64,000 nucleotides of DNA from an uncultured Planctomycetia bacterium (GCA_964460615.1 CAYWPX010000004.1:83116-147115); one strand, 5' to 3'. Numbered from the stretch's first letter, positions 7,188 through 51,734 are shown. The notes: a model not told the origin generated them from the letters alone. Numbers and translations are program-made.

Positions 7188-7425
7188 ATGATTAATAACA
7201 AATAACATGAATATTAGTTGACGACGAATTAATTCATTACTTTAAATATATTTAAACTAATTTTGTTAAATTTTTTATATATTTAATATAATTTATTATA
7301 ATTATATATAATTAAATATATTTATATAAATCTTACTATATTTAAATATATTCTAAGCATTCCCATATAATAGAGCCTTTTTAAATATAATTTAATTTAA
7401 TTTATTTACTTTAATTTACTTATAT

Positions 7426-7866
7426 TTACTCCTGAAGAAGGGTTAATTCTACCGCATGTTCCTCTTCGTCAAGAATAACATGCCTGATCTCATGCTCCAA
7501 TCTTTCAAAGCAATACTGAAGAGATTCTTTATTTTCAACAACTTTTTTGTAGATACCCTTGTAGAAATCAATGGCTTCTTTTTCAGCTTTTATGTTTATT
7601 TTTAATATATCAGGGATATTGTTAGCCTTATTTGTCTTAGCAAGATCCATCGAGCACTCACCATCTAAATAACTTGCAATAAGCTCTCTGAATTTCCCCT
7701 CATGCTTTTCCTCATCAGAAGCAATCTCTTTTAATCTGGCAATTATTGCCTCAGCATTAATGCCTTTTATTGTTTCGGCATGCGCAAGATACTGAATTCT
7801 TGCTGCATGTTCAAGCTCCAACGCCTTATTAAGCATTTCTACTAATTCTTTTTTTATATCAGCCAT
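7426..7866 (-). CDS. ferritin-like/rubrerythrin-family diiron protein (no rubredoxin domain)
   Basis: 146 aa four-helix bundle pattern with paired E..H motifs (ELEHAAR, EEKHEGK, EKEAIDFY, EHEIRH). Confidence 0.6.
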   Translation of the reverse strand: MADIKKELVEMLNKALELEHAARIQYLAHAETIKGINAEAIIARLKEIASDEEKHEGKFRELIASYLDGECSMDLAKTNKANNIPDILKINIKAEKEAIDFYKGIYKKVVENKESLQYCFERLEHEIRHVILDEEEHAVELTLLQE

Positions 7867-8255: not shown

Positions 8256-9458
8256 TTATTTCTTTACAAGTTTCGCAAAATCCTCGCCGAACTTGATACA
8301 CTTTTTTAATTCTTCTTCATCCGGAACATATTTAACCGAGATCGACGGTATCGATATATCCATTCCACCCCCTTTAAGGGCTTCTTCCATTTCTTTAACG
8401 GCTCCGCCAGCCCATCCATATGAGCCAAAAACCCCTGTTAACCTGTTTTTCACCCTCAAACCCTTCAAAAATTCTAAAAATCCCGCAATATTCGGAAGCA
8501 TGTCCACATCATGCGTCGAAGATCCTGCCAAAAAACCTTTTGCATCAAGCATCTCTGTAATTATCTCAGTCCTGTCGGACGTAGCTACATCATAGATCTT
8601 TACGCTAACTCCGGCATTTTCTATTCCTTCGCTGATGGCCCTTGCCATCTTTTCGGTAGATCCCCACATGGTTTCATAAAAAACGATCACTTTGGGTTTT
8701 GTAGAATTCTTTGTCCAGTATAAATATGAATTAATTATCTTCATCGGATCTTTTCGCCAGATTATCCCGTGACTTGGCGCTATCATTTTTATAGGTATAT
8801 TAAGCTTTATTATTTCTTCTATCTTTTTTTGGATGATCGAGCTTAATGGCCAAAGAATATTCGCATAATACTTGGCGGCTTCATCCATAAGCGCGCACTG
8901 GTCAACCTCGTCGTCAAACCGTTCGGAACTGGCCAGGTGCTGGCCGAATGCATCATTTGGCATTAATAGCTCTAATTCTTTTAAATAAGTGAACATACTG
9001 TCCGGCCAGTGGATCATGGGGGCTTCAATAAAATTGAGGGTATACTTCCCAAGTTTCAATTCATCATTTGTTTTTACAATATTAAAATCCCAACCGCCGC
9101 TTTTTTCGGGATAATAATGTTTCCATAGGCCTTCCTTACATTTACTAGTCCCGAAAAGTTTTGCCTTTGGGCATAATTTCATAACTTCAGGCAATGATCC
9201 TGAGTGGTCTGTCTCAACATGGTTTACCACAATGTAATCGATCTTTTCGGGGGGGATAACCTCTCTGATATTATTAATCAACTCGCCGGAGAATTTTCCA
9301 AGGACCGTATCTACAAGGGTTATTTTTTCATCTATTATCAGATATGCATTATAAGTTGTGCCTCTTTTTGTAGAATAGGTATGCCCATGGAAGTTCTTGA
9401 CCTCCCAATCAACCACCCCTACCGAATAAACATCTTTTAATATTTCCCTGTGTGGCAT
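8256..9458 (-). CDS. flavodiiron protein (metallo-beta-lactamase plus flavodoxin domains; O2/NO reductase)
   Basis: HVETDHSGS diiron motif, C-terminal flavodoxin fold; 400 aa. Confidence 0.9.
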   Translation of the reverse strand: MPHREILKDVYSVGVVDWEVKNFHGHTYSTKRGTTYNAYLIIDEKITLVDTVLGKFSGELINNIREVIPPEKIDYIVVNHVETDHSGSLPEVMKLCPKAKLFGTSKCKEGLWKHYYPEKSGGWDFNIVKTNDELKLGKYTLNFIEAPMIHWPDSMFTYLKELELLMPNDAFGQHLASSERFDDEVDQCALMDEAAKYYANILWPLSSIIQKKIEEIIKLNIPIKMIAPSHGIIWRKDPMKIINSYLYWTKNSTKPKVIVFYETMWGSTEKMARAISEGIENAGVSVKIYDVATSDRTEIITEMLDAKGFLAGSSTHDVDMLPNIAGFLEFLKGLRVKNRLTGVFGSYGWAGGAVKEMEEALKGGGMDISIPSISVKYVPDEEELKKCIKFGEDFAKLVKK

Positions 9459-14050: not shown

Positions 14051-15337
14051 CTATTTTAATATGCTCTTTAAATCTTCTTTGGCAGTTGTTATCAAATGAA
14101 GATCAAATTTTTCCTGCAATATCCCCATCACGTTTTTTGATATAAAAGCAGGAGCAGTCGGTCCTATGTATATGCCTTTTATGTTAAGATATAATAGACT
14201 CAATAATATTGCAACTGCTTTCTGTTCAAACCAAGAAAGTACCATAGTCAGCGGCAATTCGTTTACTCCAACATTAAATGCTTTTGAAAGCGCCAGAGCG
14301 ACCTGGATCCCAGAATACGCATTATTGCACTGGCCTATATCAAGAAGTCTTGGGATCCCATCGATGTTCCCGAAATCATATTTATTGAACCTGTACTTAC
14401 CGCAGGCTACCGTAAGTATAACGCAATCTTTGGGTACACTTAAAGCAAAATCTGTATAGTAATTTCTTCCCGGTTTTGCTCCATCGCATCCGCCGATCAA
14501 AAAGAAATGTTTTATCTTCCCGGATTTTACTGCATCAATTATTTTATCAGCGATCCCGAGTATTGCCGTATGGTGAAATCCCGTCATGATCTTTTTACCC
14601 GGCGCTTCCGGCAGCCCCGGCAAAGACTTGGCCAATCTTATTAGTTCTGTAAAATCCCTGTTTTTTATATGCTTAGCGCCCGGAATACCCGTAACATTTT
14701 TCGTAAATAACCTGTCCAGATATGAATTTTCCGGCGGTATCAGAACACAGTTAGTTGTAGCAAGTATTGCGCCGCTAAATTCATTAAACTCTTTTTTTTG
14801 TTCTTGCCACGCTCCGCCGTAATTCCCAACCAGATGTTTAAATTTTTTTAGTTCCGGATAGCCGTGCGCCGGAAGCATTTCACTATGTGTATAGATATTA
14901 ATTCCTTGCCCCTCGGTCTGCTTCAATAATTCATACAGGTCCAGAAGGTCATGCCCCGTTACTAAGATACCCGGGCCCTTTCTTGTCCCTGTCTCTACTT
15001 CCGTCGGGACCGGATTGCCGAACTCCTCTGTGTGAGCCTTATCCAATAGCTCCATGACCCTCAGATTCATCTGGCCGCATTTTAGGACCATCTCAAGGTG
15101 CTGATTAAGGTCAAAGCTCACGTTCGTAATTGTCTTAAAAAGCGCTTCGTGCATAAAAGCATCAACCTCTTCGTCTTTTGCGCCCAATTCTCTAGCATGA
15201 TATGCATAGGCGGCAATGCCTTTTAGCCCGTATAAAAGTATATCCTGCAAGCTCTGAATATCTTCATTCTTTCCGCAAACACCTACTTTTGTGCAGCCGC
15301 TTCCGCCTGCTGTCTGTTCACACTGATAGCAAAACAT
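14051..15337 (-). CDS. hcp: hybrid-cluster protein (hydroxylamine reductase), short class
   Basis: MFCYQCEQT...GVCGK N-terminal cubane Cys cluster; 428 aa; AAGGAGG RBS. Confidence 0.92.
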   Translation of the reverse strand: MFCYQCEQTAGGSGCTKVGVCGKNEDIQSLQDILLYGLKGIAAYAYHARELGAKDEEVDAFMHEALFKTITNVSFDLNQHLEMVLKCGQMNLRVMELLDKAHTEEFGNPVPTEVETGTRKGPGILVTGHDLLDLYELLKQTEGQGINIYTHSEMLPAHGYPELKKFKHLVGNYGGAWQEQKKEFNEFSGAILATTNCVLIPPENSYLDRLFTKNVTGIPGAKHIKNRDFTELIRLAKSLPGLPEAPGKKIMTGFHHTAILGIADKIIDAVKSGKIKHFFLIGGCDGAKPGRNYYTDFALSVPKDCVILTVACGKYRFNKYDFGNIDGIPRLLDIGQCNNAYSGIQVALALSKAFNVGVNELPLTMVLSWFEQKAVAILLSLLYLNIKGIYIGPTAPAFISKNVMGILQEKFDLHLITTAKEDLKSILK

Positions 15338-15354
15338 TTAAACCTCCTTAATGG

Positions 15355-15404
15355 CCCCTACCGTTTTGATTCGCTTTTGCGAATGCAAAACGAATCAGTA
15401 GGGG
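15355..15404. promoter_or_regulatory. 48-50-nt near-perfect palindrome in hcp leader; second copy at 54467-54514
   Basis: CCCCTACCGTTTTGATTCGCTTTTGCGAATGCAAAACGAATCAGTAGGGG, 5 nt before AAGGAGG RBS of hcp; near-identical copy upstream of gltB-like gene. Confidence 0.6.
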
Positions 15405-15410
15405 GAATTA

Positions 15411-15481
15411 CTTCGTCGAATGTGTCAAAATTATCAGATATTTTTATATCTGAAAATTTTGATACTTTTTATGAGACGAAG
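15411..15481. repeat. solitary copy of the 88-nt hairpin repeat in hcp upstream region
   Basis: cttcgtcgaatgtgtcaaaattatcag...ctgaaaattttgatactttttatgagacgaag, internally palindromic. Confidence 0.65.
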
Positions 15482-15511
15482 TTATCTTAATTGGTCCCTT
15501 TTTAGGGACGA

Positions 15512-16237
15512 CTACAAATAAATCTCTTCGGCAAGTTCCTTGCCTTTTTTTGTCAGCATTACTTTATCAATAAGATCTTTAAGCTTATCCTTATCTTTCA
15601 GGTCAAATTCATCTTTTATATTTACCAGCCAATCCGCATCGGTTAAAATCCTGAAATTCGTTGTATCTATAGCATTGAGAGTATGATGATGAGCAATGAT
15701 CTCGCAAACCTCTTTAATATCATTTTTCTTCAACCCGACTTCTAACATTATTTTCTCGGCAATTTTTGGACCTTCCATCTCCTGATACTTACCGGCATTG
15801 GATCCATATTTCTCTTCGGCAGCCTTTATGCCAACATCATGGAGAACGCTTGCCGGTATAACTATATTCCAGTCGCCTCCCTCAGCTCTAAGTATAATTT
15901 CAGCATACTCCAAAACTTTTTTTGCATGATTTATTCGTTTTAAATCGCTTCCAAAGTAAGTTTCAAGCTCTTTAATAAGTTTTTCTTTTAAAGTACATGA
16001 TTTTGTTTCCATAAACTCATTATATGTTTTTGCGCCGATGCATTCCTTGGCGTAATTGCACCAATTTATGCAGCTTTTGTCTCCCTCGGCTTTAAAAACA
16101 GTCTTTCCGCAGTTGGTGCAAAGTGTTTTTATCTCGTCAGACCATATCTCGACATTTTCACCGCAAAACTGGCACCTGATCTCTTCGGGCTTAGGTTCTC
16201 TAAAATCTTTCGCTCCCGGACAATGATTATTAAACAT
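15512..16237 (-). CDS. HD-domain phosphohydrolase with N-terminal Cys-rich zinc-ribbon region
   Basis: N-terminal CxxC..CxxC..C motifs; C-terminal VLHDVG ... IIAHHH HD motifs. Confidence 0.6.
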   Translation of the reverse strand: MFNNHCPGAKDFREPKPEEIRCQFCGENVEIWSDEIKTLCTNCGKTVFKAEGDKSCINWCNYAKECIGAKTYNEFMETKSCTLKEKLIKELETYFGSDLKRINHAKKVLEYAEIILRAEGGDWNIVIPASVLHDVGIKAAEEKYGSNAGKYQEMEGPKIAEKIMLEVGLKKNDIKEVCEIIAHHHTLNAIDTTNFRILTDADWLVNIKDEFDLKDKDKLKDLIDKVMLTKKGKELAEEIYL

Positions 16238-16297
16238 TGGTTTTTCTCTTTTTTAATTTTTCGATGTACTATGTACGAAGTACGATATACTGTTTTT

Positions 16298-17158
16298 CTA
16301 CACCCATTCTTCGCTTAATATTTCTCCTTCAATGCTCACAACGATAGCTTTAACCGGAATTTTCCTTTTTGCCCGGCTGGCCGCTGATTTCGCAAGATTC
16401 AACAAACCGCCACAACACGGAACCTCCATAATCATTACGGTAATGGTATTTATCTTCGCATCATCTATCAGCTGAATAATTTTTTCTTCATATATTTCAA
16501 GCCCTTCGTCAAGTTTCGGGCATGCTATTGCCAGAGATTTACCTTTTAAAAAACCGGTATGAAAATTTCCCAGGGCGTATGCCACGCAGTCTGCCGAAAG
16601 TACTACATCGGCATTCTTAAAATATGACGCTCCCGGATTAACTAAATGCAGTTGCACCGGCCATTGCCTGAGCTTTGATTTTACATCTATTTTTTCATCT
16701 ATGGGTGCCGATGAAACATCCTTTTTTCTAAAATCCATTGCCTTTGATCCCGGGCAAGGCGAAAAACCGTGTGCATGCATAGATCTTATCCCTTCATTTT
16801 CTTTTAACGGGTTTTCCAAATTATTTTCTTCCAGGTATTTAATAGCTTCTTTTAAATATTCTGACTCATTATGGTCTTTTAAATGCAAAAGGTGAGCAAT
16901 CATGACATTTTTACCCTGTTTTACGATATTAGCCATAACCTTAGATTCATCGTACTTTTCTGCAACTCTCTCCTCTATATATATAGCGCCCAGGGGGCAA
17001 TGCCCGATACAAGCACCCAATCCATCGCAAAATAAGTCGCTTATTAGCCTCGCCTTTCCATCAATTATCTGGAGCGCCCCTTCAGGACAATTGGGGATAC
17101 AACTGCCGCAACCGTTGCACTTTGTTTCATCAATGTTAATTATTTTTCTTTTTGACAT
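16298..17158 (-). CDS. 4Fe-4S dicluster ferredoxin-domain protein with C-terminal CCG-like Cys motif
   Basis: CNGCGSCIPNCP and CDGLGACIGHCP then C-x35-CCGG (half CCG-domain-like); start abuts stop of the Rrf2 gene. Confidence 0.55.
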   Translation of the reverse strand: MSKRKIINIDETKCNGCGSCIPNCPEGALQIIDGKARLISDLFCDGLGACIGHCPLGAIYIEERVAEKYDESKVMANIVKQGKNVMIAHLLHLKDHNESEYLKEAIKYLEENNLENPLKENEGIRSMHAHGFSPCPGSKAMDFRKKDVSSAPIDEKIDVKSKLRQWPVQLHLVNPGASYFKNADVVLSADCVAYALGNFHTGFLKGKSLAIACPKLDEGLEIYEEKIIQLIDDAKINTITVMIMEVPCCGGLLNLAKSAASRAKRKIPVKAIVVSIEGEILSEEWV

Positions 17159-34628: not shown

Positions 34629-34708
34629 CGTACATCGTTAAAATTAGTCTTTTTGCAAAATACGATATACGATGTACTATGTACCTGCCTCGCCCATGGG
34701 CGAGGCGT

Positions 34709-35736: not shown

Positions 35737-35863
35737 GGGGTTAGTCCTTCCTATCATTTAAGGAAGTGACTTATCCCACAAGGGTAGTCCTTCCTATCAT
35801 TTAAGGAAGTGGCTTATCCCACAAGGGTAGTCCTTCCTATCATTTAAGGAAGTGACTCGTTCC
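35737..35863. repeat. three tandem 42-43-nt direct repeats immediately upstream of moxR (Bat operon)
   Basis: GGGTAGTCCTTCCTATCATTTAAGGAAGTGACTTATCCCACAA x3, each containing CTTCCT..AGGAAG inverted core. Confidence 0.8.
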
Positions 35864-36015: not shown

Positions 36016-36771
36016 TTAATTAAAAACTGTTCTTTTGACGATCTCTTTAACGGTATTAAAAACATCTGAATTCCCCGGAAGTTCGAGAATTGACTTAGCT
36101 TCCAGGCTAAATTTTTCTATATCTTTACTAAAAAGAATATCTCCGCCAAAAGGTATGCCGGAAGATTTTATCTCACCGTCTAATTCTTTAATATCACCCT
36201 TTACCTTATTTATTATTAGATACACCTTATCCAGCTTAATACCAATTTCCCTGGCAAGATCGTAAATTCTTTTTGCTGACCTGATACCTATAACACTAAA
36301 ATCACTTACAATAAAAAGAATATCTATCTTACGGGCGGTTTTTCTGGAAATGTGCTCCATCCCGGCTTCATTATCCATAACGCTAAATTTATAATCATCC
36401 GTAAGATCTTTTACTATATCCCTTAAAAGGCTATTGGCATAGCAGTAGCAACCGGGGCCCTCGGGCCTTCCCATAGTTAGTAACGAGAGATTACCCTTTT
36501 CCATAATTGACTCTTCTATTTTATAACGAAGATATTCGTTTTTTGTCATTCCGGCAGGGATCTCGTCCTTTTTATCTATCATCTCTTCACAAACACTTGA
36601 GAGGGTGTCTTCCACCTTAAGCCCGAGCATCTCAGGAAGCGTAGAATTAGGATCGGCATCGACAGCCAATACGGAGTTCTCTTTGTCGGCTATCAGAGAC
36701 TTTATCACAAGACTTGAGAAAGTAGATTTCCCCGTCCCGCCTTTTCCTGTTATTGCTATTATTTTTGACAT
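36016..36771 (-). CDS. cooC: CooC/AcsF-type Ni-insertion accessory ATPase (MinD/ParA fold)
   Basis: AITGKGGTGKST deviant Walker A, CxC metal site (GPGCYCYAN); directly downstream of acsB. Confidence 0.85.
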   Translation of the reverse strand: MSKIIAITGKGGTGKSTFSSLVIKSLIADKENSVLAVDADPNSTLPEMLGLKVEDTLSSVCEEMIDKKDEIPAGMTKNEYLRYKIEESIMEKGNLSLLTMGRPEGPGCYCYANSLLRDIVKDLTDDYKFSVMDNEAGMEHISRKTARKIDILFIVSDFSVIGIRSAKRIYDLAREIGIKLDKVYLIINKVKGDIKELDGEIKSSGIPFGGDILFSKDIEKFSLEAKSILELPGNSDVFNTVKEIVKRTVFN

Positions 36772-36860
36772 TTTTTTCTCGTACGGCGTCTTTAGTACGG
36801 CGTACTGCGTTAAAATTTTTCTTTTTCGCTGTACACAATACTCCGTACGCCGTACTTCTT
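36772..36860. repeat. GTACG-family hairpin cassette (arm1 - A-rich loop GAAAAAGAAAAATTTTAACG - arm2) between acsB and cooC
   Basis: arm1 GTACGGCGTACGGAG pairs with arm2 CAGTACGCCGTAC; homologous cassettes at 497-603, 2533-2623, 4039-4117, 16238-16297, 34629-34708, 39057-39162, 40393-40462, 51676-51734. Confidence 0.7.
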
Positions 36861-39056
36861 TTACATTATTGATTCCATCGTAAGCGCCGGATGATTTACC
36901 TTTTCGAGATACGGCAAAAGCTCATCAACAGTGGTAGCTACCGTTTCATCGGCGATTTTATTAATAAAATCCGGGTCCCCTATTTCCTCGCATCGCTTTT
37001 TGAGTTTACCGGCTAAAGATTCTTTTAATTCTTTGGGCATCCAGACGATCCTTTTAAGCCCGCCTTCGGCAGAGATAAATTTCTTGCTTGTTATATAAAG
37101 CCTGCCTACCCCTAAAAATCCCGGTACCTGCTCACCCCCGCCGACAGATCCGGCAAGGGTGGTAAATTTCATACCGCATGGCGTCATACCGTTAAAATTC
37201 CTGTCTACTATCATTACACCATTTGCTTCAGGGATCAATGCAACTATACATTCAAAACATCCGCAGCTTGTTGTAGGAGCGTCCATAATAGAGTAAAGGC
37301 TCATGCGCGAAGTTGTCTTATTGGATTTATTATACATATATTCATTTATCGTTTCCCACTCGCCTTTTTTCTCGTCTATGGTCTTTCCTTTTTTGACCGG
37401 CTCATTGCCGCCTGTGGGGTTTATCTCTGAGGCCGCTTTTCCATCCAGCCAGTTATATGCTCCGCAAAGCCCAAGCCTTTCGGGGCTTATAATACAGATA
37501 TGATTGGGGGCGAATGACTGACAAAGTTTGCATGAATAATAGACATCAACACTTTCGTCTGTCATATGGGCGATCCTTGCGTCGCGCTCATCAAAAGCCT
37601 TCAATGCCTCGGGAAGGCGCTTCAAGATATCCTCTTCTTTTGTATAAATAGTGACCTGCACCTTATCAACAATCGAAGGAAAATCCTTTAGCAGTATCGA
37701 ATGCATGATCACACCTAGGTGTCTTAATTTAAAACCTGCCTTCACAGCGTCTTTACTTATTCTTATCCAGTTCATATCGCGCTGGCCGATATGCATTACA
37801 CCCATCGCTTCGCTTAAAGATGTATGAATGCGCCTTTCCAGGACGGGTTCAAAATCACTCTGCATCTTTCTTCCGGCTACATCGATAACCAAAGCAAACG
37901 GCAAAGCTTTTTTATTTGCACAATCAGCTTCGCTTATCTCAGGGCCTATAACTTCGATCTTGCCGTTTTCAACTTCCTCAAGCTTTCTCATCCTCACATA
38001 TTCAAACGCTTTTGAGGCTTTTCCCCCCATCTCGATGCAAGTCTCTTCTTTTCTTACTCTCTCCCCTTCGAACGCCGGGCCATAAGGAACAGGCACGTCG
38101 GGCTTATCGATAGTAACTTTTATGCCTCTTACTTCAATTCCTTTTTCTACTATTTTATCAACACTTACAGGCGATACAACATGCTCATATTTACACACGC
38201 CTGTTACAAGTATCTGGTCTATATCTGTATCCGCAATTACCGGAAATCCGAAATTTATCGCCCCGGCTGCAACACTAGCCTTAAGGTCGTCTACCGGTCC
38301 AAGCGCGAGGACAAATGCATTGACCCTGTTTTTATTATAAAGAAGTATATCATGAGCCTCTTTTGGCCCTTTTGGCGTTATCCCGCCGAATGTCATAGCG
38401 GCTCTTACGGCAAAATTAATAGCATAAATAGTAGAAGTAAGATCTTTCCCGTATGGTATCAAAAAAGAATCGAGGCCCATTTTTATATTTTCAGCTTCAA
38501 GTTGTTCGGCAATGTTCACGCCGTTAGATTCTCCTGACATAAAAACAAGTATTCTTCTTTCCTGAAGTTTCCTGATAATTTTTACGGCGTCTTTTGATGT
38601 AGGAGCGGCCCCCACTATTGCGGCAAACCCGGACATCCTTCCGTCAACCAGCCTTATGCCCTGTTCCCTTAAGACCCCATCCGGAGTAAACCCGGACCAT
38701 AGACCTGTAGCCGGATTATTGCCTCTAGCGTATTTTAAAGCTTCTATTATTTCAGCGGCAAAAAGCGTAGCCATCCCCGAATCAAGCGCAGGACCTAAAT
38801 AAGGCGTATAGCAACTATCCGTCGGATCATCATGTAAAAGTGTTTTGGCAAAATTTATTATTTGAACAAGATCTGATGCTTTCTGGGCCTTAAGAGCAAG
38901 CATTGCATAGGCAAAAGGAAGATAATAATTTGTATCCGGGAAAGCAACGAGCGCATCGAGCCCTTTTTCTTTGATAAATAGGTTAAGGTCACTCTCTGCG
39001 AGGTTAACCACTTTACGCGCACCGCTAATCGCAAATCCTGCTATTACTTTGGACAT
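36861..39056 (-). CDS. acsB: acetyl-CoA synthase catalytic subunit (CODH/ACS alpha, A-cluster)
   Basis: 731 aa; A-cluster block TSCGCFECIVALIPEANG, FAPNHICIISPERLGLCGA, C-terminal ADETVATTVDELLPYLEKVNHPALTM; full N-terminal CODH-interaction domain. Confidence 0.92.
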   Translation of the reverse strand: MSKVIAGFAISGARKVVNLAESDLNLFIKEKGLDALVAFPDTNYYLPFAYAMLALKAQKASDLVQIINFAKTLLHDDPTDSCYTPYLGPALDSGMATLFAAEIIEALKYARGNNPATGLWSGFTPDGVLREQGIRLVDGRMSGFAAIVGAAPTSKDAVKIIRKLQERRILVFMSGESNGVNIAEQLEAENIKMGLDSFLIPYGKDLTSTIYAINFAVRAAMTFGGITPKGPKEAHDILLYNKNRVNAFVLALGPVDDLKASVAAGAINFGFPVIADTDIDQILVTGVCKYEHVVSPVSVDKIVEKGIEVRGIKVTIDKPDVPVPYGPAFEGERVRKEETCIEMGGKASKAFEYVRMRKLEEVENGKIEVIGPEISEADCANKKALPFALVIDVAGRKMQSDFEPVLERRIHTSLSEAMGVMHIGQRDMNWIRISKDAVKAGFKLRHLGVIMHSILLKDFPSIVDKVQVTIYTKEEDILKRLPEALKAFDERDARIAHMTDESVDVYYSCKLCQSFAPNHICIISPERLGLCGAYNWLDGKAASEINPTGGNEPVKKGKTIDEKKGEWETINEYMYNKSNKTTSRMSLYSIMDAPTTSCGCFECIVALIPEANGVMIVDRNFNGMTPCGMKFTTLAGSVGGGEQVPGFLGVGRLYITSKKFISAEGGLKRIVWMPKELKESLAGKLKKRCEEIGDPDFINKIADETVATTVDELLPYLEKVNHPALTMESIM

Positions 39057-39162
39057 TTATTTTACCTCCAAATTATTTTTAGTACTTCGTCGTTCGTACT
39101 TCGTACATCGTTTTTTATTTTTCTTTTTCGATATACGCTATGCGATGTACGATGTACGGTTT
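39057..39162. repeat. GTACG-family hairpin cassette between cooS-like gene and acsB
   Basis: arm1 GTACATCGTACATCG, loop GAAAAAGAAAAATAAAAAACG, arm2 CGATGTACGAAGTAC; same architecture, different arm sequence with preserved pairing. Confidence 0.7.
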
Positions 39163-40392
39163 TTAATACATCATCGGCGCCAGCTTTAAAGCGCTTCGTT
39201 TTTTATCAATATGATCTATCATTATACGAGCTGCTTTTACCGGATCAGGTTCAAAGGCCCATTTACCGCCTAAGAGCCCTTCAATATCTTTTGTTATAAG
39301 ATTGACTACGTCCTTGCTTTCAATAATAGTCGACGGCGCGCCAAATACAACTAAAGCCCCGCTTGAAACAAAATACCATCCTATTGAAAGCATCTCGGCC
39401 GGCACAAGGTCAAAACTTGCTCCTGCTATCGGCAGATCATCTATACCGGCAAGCCCGGCCTCTTTTGCTATAGCGGCACATGCCAGAAGGATCCTCGAAT
39501 TATCACTCATTAAGCCCATATCAATGACGGGAGGGATCCCGACTGCTTTGCAGACTTCTTTAAGGCCCTTACCGGCTAAATCTTTGGCCTCGGGTTTAAA
39601 AAGCCCTGCTTTTACCGATTCGATTGAACATTTCCCGGTCTGGATAACCAGGCAATCATTTTTGATAAGTTCTTTTATCAATTTTACGCTGTCGGTACCG
39701 GCATTGGACGACGGGCTATCGCTTCCGGCAATCGCAGCAACACCTCTAATGCGCCCGTTAACTATATTATCAAGTAAAGGGACCAAAGAAGCCCTGAATT
39801 TCCCGCCCAGGTGGTATGGGATATTGTTCTCAGAGAATCCCGTTATATAATCATTACCTCCTACGGATTTCTTTGTAACTACCGGCATGCCGAAAATGAT
39901 ATCGCTTAATTCATTCTCTATCATGGCGCTTCCCCACCCCTCGGCAAGCGATGTCCTTATAATATTAGACGCTAGAGAGGCATCGTTTGGGTTTGATACT
40001 TTTGAAACGGCTAAGGCCGTTTCATCAATCTCTCTATTTATACCCCGCGGTATTGCATTAAGCTTTTTCCAGTAATCAGTTTGTTTTTTCAGAGCGCGCT
40101 TTGAAAAAATAAGGGCCGAGTCATCTTTTTTTTCAAATTCATTTAGCAATTTTGCCCCGAGCTCCATTGCGATTTCCGGATCTCTTTTATTCTCAGTAGA
40201 AATTAAAAATTCTATTGCTAGGCTTTTTAATTTCTCGGGACTTTTTATCGAAAGAGTTTTATCCAAGCCTTTTGCGATTGAAATAAGTTTATTTATAAGT
40301 TCTAAGGCTTTTTTAGAATGATTAGAAACCCCGCTTGCTGTAATACTTGCAACATCTTTTACGCTTACGCCTTTTGATTCCGTCTGTACCAT
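39163..40392 (-). CDS. degenerate CooS-like protein: homologue of C-terminal half of Ni-CODH lacking all C-cluster Cys/His ligands
   Basis: Aligns from memory with CooS C-terminal blocks: ASLAEGWGSAMIENELSDIIFG ~ ADGWGGSMIATEISDILFG; VIDMGLMSDNSR ~ VLHMGSCVDNSR; PIAGASFDLVPAEMLSIGW ~ PLVASAPECMSEKALAIGSW; cluster-ligand Cys replaced (CNN->SDSP, C->L, C->F); no N-terminal B/D-cluster domain. Confidence 0.65.
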   Translation of the reverse strand: MVQTESKGVSVKDVASITASGVSNHSKKALELINKLISIAKGLDKTLSIKSPEKLKSLAIEFLISTENKRDPEIAMELGAKLLNEFEKKDDSALIFSKRALKKQTDYWKKLNAIPRGINREIDETALAVSKVSNPNDASLASNIIRTSLAEGWGSAMIENELSDIIFGMPVVTKKSVGGNDYITGFSENNIPYHLGGKFRASLVPLLDNIVNGRIRGVAAIAGSDSPSSNAGTDSVKLIKELIKNDCLVIQTGKCSIESVKAGLFKPEAKDLAGKGLKEVCKAVGIPPVIDMGLMSDNSRILLACAAIAKEAGLAGIDDLPIAGASFDLVPAEMLSIGWYFVSSGALVVFGAPSTIIESKDVVNLITKDIEGLLGGKWAFEPDPVKAARIMIDHIDKKRSALKLAPMMY

Positions 40393-40462
40393 ATCTTTTC
40401 CTTTTTATTTAATATTTTTTGGTTTTTTCGAAATACGATGTACTATGTACGAAATACTGCTT

Positions 40463-41641
40463 TTATAGCCCCAAATCTGTCGGGGCCCTCCCGATAGACT
40501 CCAATAGCTTAGTAACTTCTTCGATCCTTTCTTCTATGCTTGATTCGGTGCCTTTTTTTTCCGGGTATATGGAATAGAGTTTCTGGTATTTTACAGGTGT
40601 CATATCAATCATCAGAGAGTTTCCGCCGGCCAATAACCCTTTTTTAGCTCCTTCAAATTTATCAAGAGTCTCCAGGGCTGTCGTAACAAGGATCCTTGCA
40701 TCAGGATATAGCATTCTGGCACGGGCAATAGACGTAAGCGCCATATCAAGACTTGGAAGAGAAGCGTCTTTTAAGGGAGTATCTTTGTGCGAAATAAAAG
40801 GGCCGAATGAGAACATCTCTGAATGAAGTTTATTCGTAAGATGGATATCTCTTAATATATCCTCCTCGGTCTGGCCGGGTAAACCCACTAAAAAACCGGT
40901 CATTATAAGATATCCCATCCTGTGTAGCTCTTCGATGAGTTCGATCCGTTTTTTTAGATTTGACCCGGGCTTTAAAGAAGAATAGAGATCTTCTTTTGAG
41001 GTCTCGAACCTTAGAAGGATCCCCCTTGCACCTCGTTCGTAGAGTAATTTATAAGTAGATAAATCTCTTTCACCTATACTCATTATTAAAAGAACATTGC
41101 ATCGCGACCTCACCTTATCAATAATATCCATTAATATTTCATCATTATACCACATGTCCTCGCCAGATTGTAGGACTAATGCCTTAAAATTATACTTATT
41201 AACAGCCATATCAGAAGCCTCGACTATCTCATCCACCGACATGCGGTACCTAATTAAATTATCATTACTGTTTCTTATGCCGCAATAGAGGCAGTCCTTA
41301 ACGCAATAGTTTGAAAAATTTATAATACCGTGTACACAGCATGAGTTGCCGGTATGTTCGTGTCTAGTCTTGTTGGCCAGCTGGTAAAGGGTCTTTGCTT
41401 CGCTGGTAAGCCTCATGTCTGTTTCCTGCAACTCGTTAAATAATTCCTTCCAGTCACTAAGGACGGCTTTGGCTTTTGTTTCTTCTACCCTTTCGATGAT
41501 AAACCCGCCCTGGGCAAGGACATAATCGCCTATTGCAAGTTTACAAAAGTCATTCCTGGCTAACTTTCTTTCGCCAAAATAGTCTATCGTAACCAGCTTA
41601 TCTCTTATCTCTACAACAACCCCTGGTATTGCGTAGCACAT
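40463..41641 (-). CDS. HypC/HupF-like domain fused to HydE-type radical-SAM maturase
   Basis: N-terminal ~75 aa MCYAIPGVVVEI...GDYVLAQGGFII matches HypC; remainder ...VHGIINFSNYCVKDCLYCGIRNSNDNLIRYRMSVDEIVE...LVLQSGED...GLPGQTEEDI...TPVKYQKLYSIYPEKK tracks HydE block by block incl. CxxxCxxC. Confidence 0.8.
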   Translation of the reverse strand: MCYAIPGVVVEIRDKLVTIDYFGERKLARNDFCKLAIGDYVLAQGGFIIERVEETKAKAVLSDWKELFNELQETDMRLTSEAKTLYQLANKTRHEHTGNSCCVHGIINFSNYCVKDCLYCGIRNSNDNLIRYRMSVDEIVEASDMAVNKYNFKALVLQSGEDMWYNDEILMDIIDKVRSRCNVLLIMSIGERDLSTYKLLYERGARGILLRFETSKEDLYSSLKPGSNLKKRIELIEELHRMGYLIMTGFLVGLPGQTEEDILRDIHLTNKLHSEMFSFGPFISHKDTPLKDASLPSLDMALTSIARARMLYPDARILVTTALETLDKFEGAKKGLLAGGNSLMIDMTPVKYQKLYSIYPEKKGTESSIEERIEEVTKLLESIGRAPTDLGL

Positions 41642-41642
41642 A

Positions 41643-42998
41643 CTAGTTTTTTAAGTCACCAACCTTTTTAATATATTTATCTATATCAAATTTTCTTCTT
41701 AACCCAGCCTCGTTCATGAATCTAATTTTGCCGAAAATCTTTCTCTCGCCCCAAGCCCTGTCATGTTTTCCAAAACACCACGCTACTCCCGTAAAACCAT
41801 TCGGGTCCCGTCCGTCAAGTTCGTACTTATTATTAAGATAAAGAGCTCTTTTAAATGCATCTTCAGGGGTTTGGGACCACTCAAGTATTTTTTTCCCCCA
41901 ATACATCCTCATATATCCGTGCATCTTACCGGTAATAACCATCTCTCTTTGAGCTGCATTCCAGGCTACGTCATGTGTTTTGGCGTTTTCAAGATCCGGC
42001 AGGCTGTAGGCATAATTCCTCTTATCGCCCTTATGTTCATATAAAGTTTTTTTGGCCCAATTAGGCAATCCTTCAAACGAATCGTAATTTTTATTATAAT
42101 AAATATAATTAAGGCTCAGTTCCCGCCTTATTATAAGTTCTTCGAGGTATGCTGATCTTGCCTTTGACCTTGACCGCATTACTTTTAGCGCAATATATAA
42201 AGGCGAGATCTGGCCAAAATGCAGATAAGGGCTCATATTTGACAGATAATCAACCGATGGATCATTCCTCAGGTCATTAAAATGATTTATTTTTCTTTTA
42301 AGAAAATTATTCAGATGCCTTTTTGCCTCATTCGTCCCCCCGTGAAAATACCCGGAACTCGGGACCTTTTTATCAATATCTAAGGATCGAACCAATCTAT
42401 CAATATTTTTCAAAGATAGCGAACCAATTTTAATATCAAGCGATTTTCTAGCTGGGCGATTTGTTTTTAAGCCTGTGACATATTTCTCTAAGCATCTATT
42501 TATTTTAGGCCTTATAGTGGCAGCGCTGAATTCCTCTTTTGTTGAGGCAACTTCAACAGGCACTACACAATCGCTTTCAACTTCTACCAGCTGGCAGTCA
42601 ATTTTTTTTGCGGCTTCATCTCTCCATGATCGCTGTATCTTCAGATACCCTCTGTCAGCTACTACAAGGCACGCTCTTTTTGATAATTTTATCGCACCGG
42701 CCTCGGGATCATTTTTGATAATTACAAACTTGCCCCCTAATTTTCTTAGCCCCGATTCCACCTCTTTTAAACCCTCGAGCATAAAATAATAATGCCTTAA
42801 ATTCGCTTCCGGGAAATTATCTGTAAGCCCAAAATAGACAACGAGCGGTTTTTTTAAACTATTCGCTTTTAATATGGCATATTGAAGTGCATGGTTATAC
42901 TCAACCCTTTGGGAGGCCTGCATCCAGTAAATTACATAATCCCTGTTGAGCACCGGATTATCATTTAAAAATTTTAACCGCTCTTTTTGAATCATCAA
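41643..42998 (-). CDS. class II CPD photolyase (FAD-dependent DNA photolyase)
   Basis: VIYWMQASQRVEYNHALQYA, RNDPSVDYLSNMSPYLHFGQIS, YELDGRDPNGFTGVAWCFGKHDRAWGER match class II photolyase blocks. Confidence 0.8.
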   Translation of the reverse strand: MMIQKERLKFLNDNPVLNRDYVIYWMQASQRVEYNHALQYAILKANSLKKPLVVYFGLTDNFPEANLRHYYFMLEGLKEVESGLRKLGGKFVIIKNDPEAGAIKLSKRACLVVADRGYLKIQRSWRDEAAKKIDCQLVEVESDCVVPVEVASTKEEFSAATIRPKINRCLEKYVTGLKTNRPARKSLDIKIGSLSLKNIDRLVRSLDIDKKVPSSGYFHGGTNEAKRHLNNFLKRKINHFNDLRNDPSVDYLSNMSPYLHFGQISPLYIALKVMRSRSKARSAYLEELIIRRELSLNYIYYNKNYDSFEGLPNWAKKTLYEHKGDKRNYAYSLPDLENAKTHDVAWNAAQREMVITGKMHGYMRMYWGKKILEWSQTPEDAFKRALYLNNKYELDGRDPNGFTGVAWCFGKHDRAWGERKIFGKIRFMNEAGLRRKFDIDKYIKKVGDLKN

Positions 42999-43021
42999 AA
43001 GCTCGTATTTTCAGAACAAAC

Positions 43022-43576
43022 TTATTCACCGAGATTATATCTGACCGTCTCTTTAAATGATTTTCTTATTTTTGGCCTGGGTGATTCAATATCCGAGGGA
43101 CCGGGATATCCAAGGCTTATCAAGATATCGATCTTTTTACTTCTGGGAATATTCAGGATTCTCTTGGCCTCTTTTTCATTGAACCAGCCTAATATACAGC
43201 TACCGACTCCAAGGGCCTGAGCCTGGAGAATAAAATTTGCAACCGCGATCCCAATATCCATAAGGCTGAACTTGACCCCTCTAAAAAAACCGCCAAGTTT
43301 GGATGTATAAGACTCTTTTTCCCTTATGACCGCTATTATAACCGGAGCAGACTTCGCAAATGTATTCATGGAATGAGTACCGGAAAAAACTTTATTAACA
43401 AATTCTTCCTTAAGCTTCGGATCATCTACGACAACAAATGACCATGGCTGCGAGTTACAGGCAGACGGGGCTAAACGCGCCGCCTCTAGACACCTATCAA
43501 TCACATCGCGCGGAATAGTGTCTGTCCGGTACCTTCTTGTGCTTTCTCTCGATTTTACGAGTTCCAGGAAATCCAT
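43022..43576 (-). CDS. nitroreductase family protein
   Basis: RESTRRY...APSACNSQPWSFVVV FMN nitroreductase signature. Confidence 0.8.
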   Translation of the reverse strand: MDFLELVKSRESTRRYRTDTIPRDVIDRCLEAARLAPSACNSQPWSFVVVDDPKLKEEFVNKVFSGTHSMNTFAKSAPVIIAVIREKESYTSKLGGFFRGVKFSLMDIGIAVANFILQAQALGVGSCILGWFNEKEAKRILNIPRSKKIDILISLGYPGPSDIESPRPKIRKSFKETVRYNLGE

Positions 43577-43670
43577 GTCTATGCCTTTAATTAAAAACGA
43601 TTTTTTTCTATGAGCTCTGCCTGCCTACGGCTTTGCCGTGAAGCAGGCGAAACTATGAGCCATGAGCTAA

Positions 43671-44135
43671 TTATCTATTCAAAACCACTATCCAATAATT
43701 AAGTACCGTTGCAAAACTTACCCAAAATACATAAGGTACAAGTAAAATTCCGGCTAATTTGGATATATTAAAAAAACTTACTATCGTCAACACAATTGCA
43801 ATCCACAATAAAGCTATAATAACTAATCCGCCCATTGGCGACCTAAGACCAAAAAAAACCGGAGACCAGACAGCGTTTAGAATTATCTGGATTGCAAAAA
43901 ATAGTAATGCCAATTTAACGGAGCTTTTAGTCGTTTTCTTATTCCAAACCAAAAAAAGCGAAATCGCCATAAGAAAATATAACACTGACCACACGGGGCC
44001 GAATACCCAGTTCGGAGGACTGAAAAAAGGTTTATTAAGTTTATCATACCAATCCGGAATGGAGCCGGCGGTAAAGATAGAGCCTAAAGCCCCTGCCCCG
44101 AAACATATTATAAGGCTTACAAAAAATTTAAACAT
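43671..44135 (-). CDS. tspO: TspO/MBR tryptophan-rich sensory protein
   Basis: 154 aa, five TM, PxWxFGPVWSVLY motif. Confidence 0.8.
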   Translation of the reverse strand: MFKFFVSLIICFGAGALGSIFTAGSIPDWYDKLNKPFFSPPNWVFGPVWSVLYFLMAISLFLVWNKKTTKSSVKLALLFFAIQIILNAVWSPVFFGLRSPMGGLVIIALLWIAIVLTIVSFFNISKLAGILLVPYVFWVSFATVLNYWIVVLNR

Positions 44136-44149
44136 AGATTATTTACTGC

Positions 44150-44914
44150 TTAATTTTTTGTTTCCATAGGAAGTTTTTTGAAACACATAAACCAGTCAAG
44201 GCAATAATAATCAGTACCGGCTTTCTCCACTCTTTCTTTCGCTGTGCCGCATGAACCGGGAGGAGGTATTATTACATCATCCCCGGGCTGCCAGTCAGCG
44301 GGTGTCGCGACGTTATTGGCATCTGATGTCTGCATCGCTATTAATAACCGCTTTATCTCGGAGAAATTCCTGCCGTTCGAAAGAGGGTAATATATCATGG
44401 CCCGGATCTTTGCGCTGGGATCGATAAAAAACACGGCTCTTACGGCTTTGGTATCGCTTGCCGAGGGCTGGACCATCCCGTATTTTTTTGCTACTTCCAT
44501 TTTTATGTCAGCTATTACAGGAAAAGTTATCTCAACATTCTCCATATCTTTATATTTAATTTTATCCTGGATAGTCTTCAACCAGGCTATGTGGCTGTAG
44601 GTACTGTCTATTGAAAGGCCTATAAGCTTGCAATTTAAGGCTTCAAATTCCGGCAACATTTTGGCAAATGTCATAAATTCAGTCGTACATACCGGGGTAA
44701 AATCAGCAGGGTGGCTGAAAAGTATTACCCATTTGCCTTTATAATCCTCAGGAAAACTTATATCACCTTGCGTTGTCTCAGCCTTAAAAGAAGGCGCCAT
44801 TTGGCCGATAAGCGGCATCTGATTAATGGGACATGTCTCGGGTTCAGCGGCAGATAAAGAAGATGCTGTACCCAGAACCACCAATACAAACAAATAAAAA
44901 AATACTTTTTTCAT
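44150..44914 (-). CDS. secreted 1-Cys/Prx6-like peroxiredoxin with Cys-containing C-terminal extension
   Basis: signal peptide; HPADFTPVCTTE peroxidatic motif; extra CGTAKER...YYCLDWFMC tail. Confidence 0.8.
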   Translation of the reverse strand: MKKVFFYLFVLVVLGTASSLSAAEPETCPINQMPLIGQMAPSFKAETTQGDISFPEDYKGKWVILFSHPADFTPVCTTEFMTFAKMLPEFEALNCKLIGLSIDSTYSHIAWLKTIQDKIKYKDMENVEITFPVIADIKMEVAKKYGMVQPSASDTKAVRAVFFIDPSAKIRAMIYYPLSNGRNFSEIKRLLIAMQTSDANNVATPADWQPGDDVIIPPPGSCGTAKERVEKAGTDYYCLDWFMCFKKLPMETKN

Positions 44915-44929
44915 AATGCCCTCCTTGTG

Positions 44930-45475
44930 TTAGAATATTTCACCTTGATTATCCTGCTTAAAGATCTCGCTCATATTTGCTAAATAGGCCGAATATGTTA
45001 TATCATCAAAAGATACGATAACTACTTTTTTTGGATTAGTTGGATTCGTATTAAAAAAATCCCTGATCTCCCTAAGCGCTATTCTTGACGCCCTATCTAC
45101 GGGAAAACGATATGCGCCTGTACTGATCGAAGGAAAAGCGATTGACCTTATCCCGTACTCTTTGGCGAGTTTAAGTGAGTTTTTGTAGCAATTTGCCAAA
45201 AGCTCATCTTCATTATCCTTACCGTCATTCCAGACCGGTCCAACAGTATGAATGACCCATTTAGCCGGAAGGTTATAACCCTTTGTTATTTTCGCTTCGC
45301 CTCGCCTGCATCCATTAAGAGCTTTGCATTCTTCCAAAAGCTTTTCTCCGGCAGCTTTATGGATTGCGCCGTCAACCCCGCCGCCTCCAAGCAAACCAGT
45401 ATTGGCGGCGTTTACTATCGCATCCACGTCCTGTAGAGTTATGTCGCCTTTTACTATCACAATATTCTGGAACAA
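44930..45475 (-). CDS. macro-domain protein (ADP-ribose binding / O-acetyl-ADP-ribose deacetylase-like)
   Basis: [33 protein letters not shown] signature. Confidence 0.85.
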
Positions 45476-51666: not shown

Positions 51667-51734
51667 AATTAGCACATCGACCTTCGTACATCGTACTTCG
51701 TATTTAGTTTTTGCTATGTACTAAGTACGATATA

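Follow-up and report, generated by a model that had tools for sequence, protein, structure and literature searches.

Can an acetyl-CoA synthase (ACS) operate beside a carbon monoxide dehydrogenase (CODH) gene that has lost its catalytic parts, and is such a gene a dying leftover or a protein still in use? The question is raised by four ORFs on the minus strand at positions 36016-41641 of a 64-kb stretch of DNA from an uncultured Omnitrophota bacterium (hereafter the window). They encode a HypC-HydE-like fusion (392 aa; 40463..41641), a Prismane/CODH homologue that we call the CODH remnant (409 aa; 39163..40392), acetyl-CoA synthase AcsB (731 aa; 36861..39056), and a CooC-type P-loop ATPase (36016..36771). 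One flank is a MoxR-DUF58-BatA/VWA-TPR-BatD operon and the other a class II photolyase (TIGR00591, 560 bits). The ORFs and profile matches confirm the initial annotation in its gene coordinates, in the presence of AcsB and CooC, and in its placement of the module between Bat and photolyase genes.

AcsB is intact. It scores 1018 bits against NF040764 (cut-off 800), and its three-domain architecture (PF18537, PF03598, and PF19436) is complete, as are its A-cluster motifs: CxxC-x8-C-x9-C (CKLCQSFAPNHICIISPERLGLC from residue 509) and CGC (from residue 598). AcsB domain A1 docks CODH; here, domain A1 (residues 1-320) has a conservation of 0.80, versus 0.82-0.85 in CODH-bearing lineages. Branch lengths of AcsB are normal and show no acceleration, and it is 83% identical to the orthologue at a sister-lineage locus (L001), with a dN/dS of 0.04. 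The ATPase has a GKGGTGKS P-loop and a CYC motif and matched no dedicated NCBIfam model. It is 54-59% identical to the acsB-linked CooC copies of three related loci (L004, L006, and L010), versus 34-39% to cooS-linked copies, and 71% identical to its L001 orthologue (dN/dS 0.09). By these identities, the retained CooC is the acsB-linked (AcsF-like) paralogue, an ATPase with a predicted role in Ni insertion.

Within the window, AcsB stands without a catalytic CODH. Pfam scans of the larger ORFs found no Wood-Ljungdahl pathway (WLP) genes in the rest of the window, and six-frame tblastn of the window with Omnitrophota queries gave no match at E≤1e-3 for Fhs, FchA, FolD, MetF, CooT, FNOR, AcsC, AcsD, AcsE, RACo, or HydG; the CooF query gave only a weak ferredoxin-type match (16949-17140). 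These searches bear out the earlier statement that the 64 kb hold no corrinoid protein (CFeSP), methyltransferase, intact CODH, fhs, or fol genes, and support its picture of AcsB and a Ni-insertion ATPase with no functional CODH, CFeSP, or methyltransferase nearby. Apart from the remnant, the window encodes a single Prismane protein (14051-15337), which at 728 bits is Hcp, a hydroxylamine reductase.

The remnant is homologous to the Prismane/CODH family (PF03063, 197 bits; PDB CODH matches down to 4e-68) but scores below the curated whole-protein CODH cut-off (TIGR01702, 237.7 bits versus 478). Alignments show that it retains two domains of Omnitrophota CooS, the helical one and the Rossmann-like one at the C terminus, and has two clean in-frame deletions, one of the B/D-cluster Cys motif region and the other of the whole middle domain. 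By tblastn, only CooS residues 75-236 and 403-639 are still encoded in the DNA, with no leftover coding fragments of the deleted parts in any frame. The sister-lineage orthologue (P0001) has both deletions, in frame and with the same boundaries, and both proteins are without the D- and B-cluster Cys motifs at the N terminus. In CODH-II numbering, the C-cluster ligands His261, Cys295, and Cys333 lie within the deleted middle domain, and the positions of Cys446, Cys476, Cys526, and the catalytic Lys563 read GSDS, TGK, GLMSDN, and PAEM in the remnant: All six C-cluster ligands are lost, and Lys563 is also replaced. No conserved Cys or His able to bind a cofactor is left in the remnant. We infer that it is free of metal clusters and unable to convert CO to CO2 or the reverse.

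Short CODH homologues have been described before. In one of them, the clade G mini-CooS from Thermosinus carboxydivorans, all 11 Cys and the His ligands are present, and the protein is presumed active (PMC3328121). At ~430-480 aa, mini-CooS is likewise short, but it keeps the cluster ligands, whereas the remnant has none of six C-cluster ligands and no B/D-cluster Cys motifs. The phylogeny, moreover, nests the remnant inside the Omnitrophota full-length CooS clade, and on both counts we rejected an assignment to mini-CooS.

Four Omnitrophota loci (L004, L006, L007, and L010) show the ancestral layout, cooT-cooC-cooS-cooF-FNOR-acsB-cooC. Compared with this cluster, the locus has lost cooT, the cooS-linked cooC (cooC1), cooF, and FNOR, and on gene content and homology, we take it to be a reduced descendant of it. 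Whether the ACS module is an "orphan," as it had been called, is unproven and not claimable from 64 kb, because close relatives too keep acsCDE away from cooS-acsB: In L004 and L007, which carry full-length cooS, no acsCDE genes occur in ~5-6 kb downstream of cooS-acsB (the L010 contig stops soon after cooC).

Losses on this scale could mean that the locus is decaying, with the cooS fragment an outgoing pseudogene and the module either a relic without function or a degraded copy of a complete acs cluster at another site. Every catalytic and electron-transfer site of CooS is gone along with the ancestral neighbor genes, our view is limited to a 64-kb window of the genome, and the remnant shows a burst of evolution on its stem branch (0.364, versus 0.079 for AcsB), its tip branches running at about twice the AcsB rate. 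Against this, the 409-codon ORF is unbroken in both species despite saturated synonymous sites. The two remnants are 70% identical, whereas neighboring housekeeping genes are 59%-69% identical between the same two species, and their dN/dS, a test made on one species pair and approximate only since dS is saturated, is ~0.17. Both deletions are in frame with shared boundaries, and neither AcsB nor CooC shows relaxation in its dN/dS. The trio of remnant, acsB, and cooC also shares its syntenic position between the two species (DctP-PMT-Macro-nitroreductase-remnant-acsB-cooC). Finally, the AF2 model of the remnant is a confident, compact two-domain fold (pLDDT 87.2, pTM 0.87) with query-normalised Foldseek TM scores of 0.88-0.90 against solved CODHs, and the remnant is thus predicted to fold as the native pair of helical and C-terminal domains. 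Decay of the locus is therefore very unlikely, and the label "pseudo-cooS," in the sense of a disrupted gene, does not hold: On the evidence of the sequences compared, the remnant is a conserved, selected protein rather than a degenerating gene. The clade is a rare one: Among 5.8 billion proteins it is represented by no more than three clusters of AcsB and two of the remnant, and it has no members among 185,579 species genomes.

Since the remnant has lost every metal site yet stays conserved, it probably survives as a non-catalytic partner and not as a dead gene. It may be kept because it supports AcsB structurally, whether by serving as a scaffold for docking or dimerisation, by capping the CO channel, or in some similar way. 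With the remnant cluster-free and unable to interconvert CO and CO2, the ACS would work without an internal CO source, in one of two ways: It could condense environmental CO with a methyl group from a corrinoid protein, or it could split acetyl-CoA into CoA, a methyl group, and free CO, as Dehalococcoides does. For either direction, a CFeSP (AcsCD) would have to be encoded outside the window. We consider it rather likely that the locus encodes a CODH-less ACS trading CO with its surroundings, with the remnant as its putative structural partner. In Carboxydothermus, monomeric ACS functions without CODH, in which case a scaffold would not be obligatory.

Alternatively, the remnant could have a function independent of AcsB catalysis, such as an A-cluster assembly chaperone acting with CooC or a regulator or sensor, its linkage to acsB reflecting co-regulation only. 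Purifying selection combined with an altered rate regime would suit such a role, as would the retention of the remnant together with the maturation ATPase and the occurrence of similar truncated proteins in several phyla. However, the native domain arrangement is preserved, and alignments of the remnant and of the truncated homologues show neither a new conserved motif nor a new set of ligands. In L001, the genes of the trio overlap, and the translational overlap of remnant and acsB there suggests stoichiometric co-production. We regard an independent function as unlikely.

The truncated proteins of other phyla comprise ~10 further clusters of CODH homologues without the middle domain. They resemble full-length CODHs of their own type more than they do one another, and such proteins have at least two independent origins. 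Some carry extra N-terminal domains (for example P0368, 531 aa). Their current labels are hypothetical protein, hydroxylamine reductase, or CODH, and truncated proteins that are mislabelled can yield false calls of CO oxidation capacity.

The preferred reading, a CODH-less ACS with a structural partner, can be set beside known systems. In bifunctional CODH/ACS (Moorella thermoacetica AcsA/AcsB, PDB 1MJG; Clostridium autoethanogenum, 6YTT), the CODH subunit is homologous to the remnant, which superposes on it with TM 0.87-0.88; AcsB here is a full member of the family, and the cooS-acsB-cooC order derives from such a cluster. However, the remnant has neither the middle domain nor clusters B, C, and D, and its locus is without CooF and FNOR as electron partners. 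CO could then not be supplied from within, which would leave any CO tunnel without a source. Dehalococcoides mccartyi has an incomplete WLP with AcsB, AcsCD, and CooC but no CODH, in which acetyl-CoA cleavage releases CO (PMC7005905). It is a plausible functional analogue, both systems having an ACS and CooC without a working CODH (PMC7005905). D. mccartyi is, however, described as wholly without CODH, whereas a conserved CODH-derived protein is retained here, and it has AcsCD, of which none was seen in the 64-kb window. Twenty-four Omnitrophota species have a partial WLP without AcsA and CooS/F, with CO proposed as the carbonyl source (PMC10066038). This type, exemplified by Velamenicoccus archaeovorus, has the same pathway gap and belongs to the same phylum as the locus. 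The Dehalococcoides-like role, CO-releasing or CO-consuming, proposed in the initial annotation is a reasonable reading that fits the Omnitrophota pattern (PMC10066038).

In the literature searched, we found no description of a cluster-free CODH remnant under selection beside AcsB. CODH surveys purposely drop any sequence in which cluster ligands are deleted or mutated (PMC6344411, PMC8776680), and pathway surveys score AcsA by presence or absence only; the Omnitrophota survey treats CODH in this way and does not describe a conserved cluster-free remnant (PMC10066038). A selected remnant of this kind would therefore have been overlooked. If ACS needs it structurally, the CODH subunit gives ACS more than CO and electrons, and "CODH-less" ACS in Omnitrophota, and perhaps in Dehalococcoidales and other lineages with similar truncated proteins, would merit re-examination. 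The remnant is also a minimal form of CODH, provided by nature, with which to find out what the synthase requires of that enzyme.

The HypC-HydE fusion had also been counted as part of the module, with the suggestion that AcsB or the degenerate CooS could receive from it a non-canonical organometallic cofactor, which would be of the Fe-CO/CN type. The fusion (PF01455 and PF04055) scores just under the HydE cut-off (TIGR03956, 252.4 bits versus 254.6) and has the radical SAM CX3CX2C motif of the HydE/HydG H-cluster maturases; in most relatives, a true HydG adjoins it. Canonical HydE, in contrast, has no HypC domain. The HypC domain of the fusion scores 52.4 bits against PF01455 (cut-off 28.5) and 45.8 against TIGR00074, just below 48; its N-terminus, MCYAIPG, including Cys2, is invariant across the family and shares the MC-x-x-x-PG start of the HypC chaperone. 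The fusion family is widespread and conserved, and many members are named HydE at NCBI. Its dominant neighborhood comprises [NiFe]-hydrogenase subunits, HycI, and HypA (L095, L101, L102, L105, L174, L175, and L176), not the [FeFe] hydrogenase genes served by HydE/HydG, and another neighborhood has a TtrA-like molybdoenzyme. The fusion flanks examined showed no HydF or HydA and no HypD/E/F.

Besides adjoining the trio in the window, the fusion recurs near acs genes in two other contigs, so that a link has a small probability. In L010, HypC-HydE and HydG lie directly upstream of intact cooS, where relatives carry cooT-cooC; in L106, HydG and HypC-HydE follow acsB-acsC-RACo-cooC-acsD-acsE; acs genes thus occur within 10 kb at three of ~16 informative fusion loci. 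Conversely, the fusion is absent from sister locus L001, which carries the same trio, and lies near only one of 80 CooS loci from species genomes. By tblastn, its usual HydG partner is missing from the window; a single nucleotide separates its gene from that of the photolyase; and the remnant offers no conserved Cys or His for a cofactor. Cofactor supply to the remnant or AcsB is accordingly most improbable. A broader proposal, that HypC-HydE and HydG form a radical-SAM route making and delivering an Fe-CO/CN unit to Ni-Fe enzymes, chiefly [NiFe] hydrogenases and in some Omnitrophota also CODH/ACS, so that the window copy would be functionally tied to the ACS module, seems highly doubtful to us. 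The adjacency is best read as incidental: HypC-HydE probably does not belong to the module functionally and would instead be a hydrogenase-cofactor maturase.

The spacers between the four genes, all read on the minus strand, had been described as ~70-110-nt hairpin cassettes. Their lengths agree with this (70, 106, and 89 nt), but only two of the three form a strong hairpin. The acsB-cooC spacer (36772..36860; arms 36781-36814 and 36822-36855) and the cooS-acsB spacer (39057..39162) are GTAY-heptad inverted repeats with RNA folds of -34.5 kcal/mol (z -7.6) and -23.4 kcal/mol (z -5.2), respectively, whereas the hydE-cooS spacer (40393..40462) has one arm, a half copy of the element, and no stable hairpin (-3.4 kcal/mol, z -0.27). 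Nor are the cassettes a feature of the module. The GTAC-heptad motif has 38 matches (2.4 expected) spread through intergenic spacers across the window, and we read similar GTAY-heptad elements in nine of these spacers; the element is a window-wide repeat with nothing specific to the ACS genes. It may have been inserted into an operon whose counterpart in the sister lineage remains tightly packed.

The module occupies 36016-41641 on the minus strand and begins with a 392-aa fusion of a HypC domain and a HydE-like radical SAM enzyme (40463-41641; PF01455, 52 bits; TIGR03956, 252.4 against a cut-off of 254.6). It continues with a 409-aa Prismane/CODH homologue, here called the remnant (39163-40392; TIGR01702, 237.7 against a cut-off of 478), a 731-aa AcsB (36861-39056; NF040764, 1018 against a cut-off of 800), and a 251-aa CooC-type ATPase assigned by comparison of paralogue identities (36016-36771). 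The nearest relatives of the remnant are full-length (~640 aa) Omnitrophota CODHs, with ~60% identity across the C-terminal 56% of the remnant, and alignments show that it differs from full-length CODHs by two clean in-frame deletions. The first (about residues 17-88 of the full-length protein) covers the Cys motifs of the D and B clusters, and the second (about residues 250-415) takes the whole middle Rossmann-like domain, including His261, Cys295, and Cys333 (CODH-II numbering). The remaining C-cluster positions are changed as well (GCDN to GSDS, TGC to TGK, and CVDN to MSDN), as is the Lys563 motif (EKA to AEM). Since the B- and D-cluster motifs and the middle domain are deleted and the remaining C-cluster positions are replaced, the remnant is predicted to be unable to bind B, C, or D clusters. 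It is not a mini-CooS, because mini-CooS proteins retain all ligands, whereas C-cluster positions are lost here.

Among 5.8 billion proteins, a single other one, P0001 (429 aa), carries the same two deletions; a scan of species-representative genomes found no truncated CooS form. The contig of P0001 (L001/L002, assembled from the two sequencing runs ERR7850084 and ERR7850085) is syntenic with the window across the genes for DctP, PMT, Macro, nitroreductase, the remnant, AcsB, and CooC; on that contig the remnant gene and acsB have an 8-nt overlap, and 17 nt separate acsB from cooC. Between the window and this sister species the remnant has 70% amino-acid identity and a dN/dS of 0.17, with dS saturated. 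The corresponding values are 83% and 0.04 for AcsB and 71% and 0.09 for CooC, and flanking housekeeping genes have 59%-69% amino-acid identity. In neighbor-joining trees the stem of the truncated clade is 0.364 for the remnant versus 0.079 for AcsB, the tips are 0.22 and 0.15 for the remnant and 0.12 and 0.08 for AcsB, and the branches of full-length lineages are about 0.1 for both CooS and AcsB. The remnant thus passed through a burst of change when the deletions occurred and then came under constraint again, and AcsB never accelerated. In P0001, two of the former ligand positions lost from the window remnant still hold Cys; the catalytic residues have therefore gone on eroding, with the remainder of the protein under constraint.

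An AlphaFold2 model of the remnant, built from a 33-sequence alignment, has a pLDDT of 87.2 and a pTM of 0.87, and superposes on solved CODHs with TM scores of 0.88-0.90 (query-normalized) and 0.57-0.59 (target-normalized), so that the helical and C-terminal domains are predicted to hold their native arrangement. The initial annotation had called the gene a pseudo-cooS, but the intact ORF, its level of constraint, and the confident model speak against a decaying gene. A frameshifted pseudogene can also be rejected: the ORF is conserved, and tblastn recovered no leftover fragment of the deleted CooS segments, and no coding trace of them, in any frame of the window.

We also searched 1.84 billion representatives with a 76-aa query centered on the deletion junction and found 11 proteins (362-531 aa) that match uninterrupted across it. 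None of the 11 has the N-terminal Cys motifs or any part of the middle domain, and by our reading of the alignment every one of them has lost one or more of the three C-terminal ligands. They come from a Dehalococcoidales MAG, Ca. Alcyoniella australis, and several metagenome clusters, under the labels hypothetical or "hydroxylamine reductase"; examples of such truncated proteins are MDD4876287.1 (Dehalococcoidales), MDP8256007.1 (Ca. Alcyoniella), and a 24-member JGI cluster. Beyond the window remnant, CODH homologues without the Fe-S N terminus and the middle domain make up 10 clusters at 50% identity (P0366, P0367, P0368, P0382, P0383, P0385, P0387, P0389, P0391, and P0396), and P0368 has an extra N-terminal domain of ~100 aa. 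Similar CODH remnants have thus arisen elsewhere, and no other truncated CODH family was present among the 177 loci examined. Most of the truncated proteins resemble full-length CODHs more than they resemble one another: P0367 has 65% identity to Dehalococcoidales CODHs versus at most 50% to any truncated protein, and the window remnant has 53% to Omnitrophota CODHs versus at most 43% to other truncated proteins. Because of this pattern, the same domain loss must have occurred at least twice, the long-branch placements in the neighbor-joining tree being unreliable beyond that. We found nothing on truncated AcsA remnants in the literature.

Of the partners of the remnant, AcsB has a complete A-cluster motif, and its domain A1 (residues 1-320), which we take to be the part that docks CODH, has 80% identity between the two truncated-clade species, compared with 82%-85% in CODH-bearing lineages of comparable divergence. 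Our literature search returned nothing usable on CODH-ACS interface residues. The window CooC is the acsB-linked paralogue (54%-59% identity to acsB-linked copies versus 34%-39% to cooS-linked copies), with P-loop and CxC motif intact. The 1185-aa AcsB homologue P0282 has intein and LAGLIDADG domains (PF14890 and PF14528) and is thus an acetyl-CoA synthase with an intein.

In Omnitrophota relatives with full-length cooS, the ancestral layout is cooT-cooC-cooS-cooF-FNOR-acsB, with fhs-fchA-folD upstream of the cluster in L006 and L007. After acsB come cooC alone (L004 and L010) or acsC-RACo-cooC-acsD-acsE (L006); L007 has no acs maturation gene after acsB within the flank examined. Compared with this layout, all that is peculiar to CODH catalysis and maturation is thus gone from the window lineage; the CODH shell remains, along with all that is peculiar to ACS. 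The absence of acsC/acsD, acsE, and fhs/fol genes within 64 kb, reported earlier, was borne out: Pfam scans of the window's larger ORFs found no Wood-Ljungdahl pathway (WLP) genes, and Omnitrophota queries for Fhs, FchA, FolD, MetF, CooT, FNOR, AcsC, AcsD, AcsE, RACo, and HydG gave no six-frame tblastn match in the window at E ≤ 1e-3. The CooF query gave a single weak ferredoxin-type match (16949-17140). Nor is there acsCDE in the ~5-6 kb downstream of cooS-acsB in L004 and L007 (the L010 contig stops shortly past cooC), so unlinked CFeSP genes are normal in this group. Because AcsB is so strongly constrained, a methyl partner is likely to exist somewhere, and AcsCD is very probably encoded elsewhere, outside the window.

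A partial WLP without AcsA and CooS/F has been described in 24 Omnitrophota species, with CO proposed as its carbonyl substrate (Seymour et al., PMC10066038). The window locus is an ACS unit without CODH, a type inferred before for Omnitrophota and established in Dehalococcoides. What appears to be new is a CODH subunit that persists as a conserved, metal-free, two-domain protein, for which conservation, synteny, and fold lead us to propose a scaffold role. The initial annotation was largely right in what it observed and partly right in how it read the locus; its more speculative suggestion, that HypC-HydE supplies a cofactor to the module, is unlikely. The fusion is absent from the sister locus L001, lies nearby in only one of 80 CooS loci from species genomes, and has no HydG in the window by six-frame tblastn.

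HypC-HydE fusions form a large, well-conserved family (~392 aa; invariant MCYAIPG start, NSCCVHG motif, and CX3CX2C motif) found in Omnitrophota, Elusimicrobiota, Planctomycetota, and others. In most informative loci a bona fide HydG adjoins the fusion (TIGR03955, 517-542 bits versus 312). The neighborhoods include an Mvh-type [NiFe] hydrogenase with HdrA, HycI, HypA, and ThiF (L095 and L174), a Group-4 membrane [NiFe] hydrogenase (L102 and L105; with HycI in L175), a [NiFe] large subunit (L101), HypA (L176), a TtrA-like molybdoenzyme (L089-L093), a complete acs operon (L106), and an intact cooS directly downstream (L010). As a rule, then, HypC-HydE and its HydG partner adjoin [NiFe]-hydrogenase structural genes, the HycI protease gene, and HypA; [FeFe] hydrogenase and HydF are not neighbors of the pair, and HypD/E/F do not occur in the flanks examined. 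We conclude that the fusion is probably a hydrogenase-cofactor maturase placed beside the acs genes by rearrangement; a functional link to acs, for which its repeated proximity in three contigs speaks, is improbable. These neighborhoods hint that HypC-HydE and HydG make the Fe(CN)2CO unit of [NiFe] hydrogenases by a radical-SAM route; we found no literature on such a route or on HypC-HydE fusions. In L010 (6801-11704), HypC-HydE and HydG precede the full-length cooS at the position of cooT-cooC in relatives, and the 10 kb upstream of cooS contain no cooS-linked cooC.

A hairpin cassette had been reported between all module genes. This holds for the 89-nt (36772-36860) and 106-nt (39057-39162) spacers, which fold strongly (z = -7.6 and -5.2), but not for the 70-nt spacer (40393-40462), which has one arm only and no fold. 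None of the three has a sigma-70-like promoter or an intrinsic terminator, and an Rfam search of the module returned nothing relevant. Each arm strings together 7-nt CGTAYNN units, and the center between the arms is A-rich. Across the window's intergenic spacers the GTAC-heptad motif has 38 matches versus 2.4 expected, GTAC density is about four times higher in intergenic than in coding sequence, and similar GTAY-heptad elements were read by eye in nine spacers. Besides the module spacers, elements lie at 497-603, 2533-2653, 16238-16297, 34629-34708, and 51676-51734. Of the other loci checked, L001 and nearly all the rest lack a stricter three-heptad pattern; L106 has one isolated match. In L177, a third clade member whose AcsB is 81% identical, AGCTTAN heptads precede acsB (1-55), and the 178-nt acsB-cooC spacer has a different long hairpin. 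The elements, whose units have a palindromic tetranucleotide core in both contigs, are imperfect inverted repeats immediately 3′ of stop codons, without an Rfam match. They are lineage-specific intergenic repeats that probably inserted into a formerly compact operon.

A second CODH in the window can be dismissed, the other Prismane protein (14051-15337) being the hydroxylamine reductase Hcp. It has 428 aa, aligns to positions 135-544 of the 546-position model, without the N-terminal part, and adjoins an HD-domain protein and a 286-aa ferredoxin-like protein (14051-17158). The cooS-acsB clusters of L004 and L010 have similar HD and Fer4 genes beside them, and rearrangement may therefore have broken up the ancestral cluster.

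Upstream of the module lies a class II photolyase (TIGR00591, 560 bits); a single nucleotide separates its stop codon from the start of HypC-HydE. In this presumed anaerobe, further oxygen and stress defense genes surround the module (8256-9458 and 41643-45475), namely those for a flavodiiron protein, nitroreductase, TspO, a 1-Cys peroxiredoxin with a signal-like N terminus, and a Macro domain protein, together with the Bat operon; photolyase, TspO, peroxiredoxin, and Bat are missing from the syntenic L001 contig. Downstream is the Bat operon (MoxR, DUF58, an unknown gene, BatA, VWA, TPR, and BatD), with a sigma-70-like promoter (11/12) at 35937-35910. Between this strong promoter-like site and the moxR start is a 43-nt tandem repeat (35742-35857; 2.7 copies, 97% matches) with a CTTCCT...AGGAAG hairpin in every copy, which may be a regulatory leader. 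The minus strand carries 58 of the 59 window ORFs of at least 90 aa, GC skew is negative throughout, and the sequence at ~7240-7430 is AT-rich (GC 0.31) and contains low-complexity tandem repeats.
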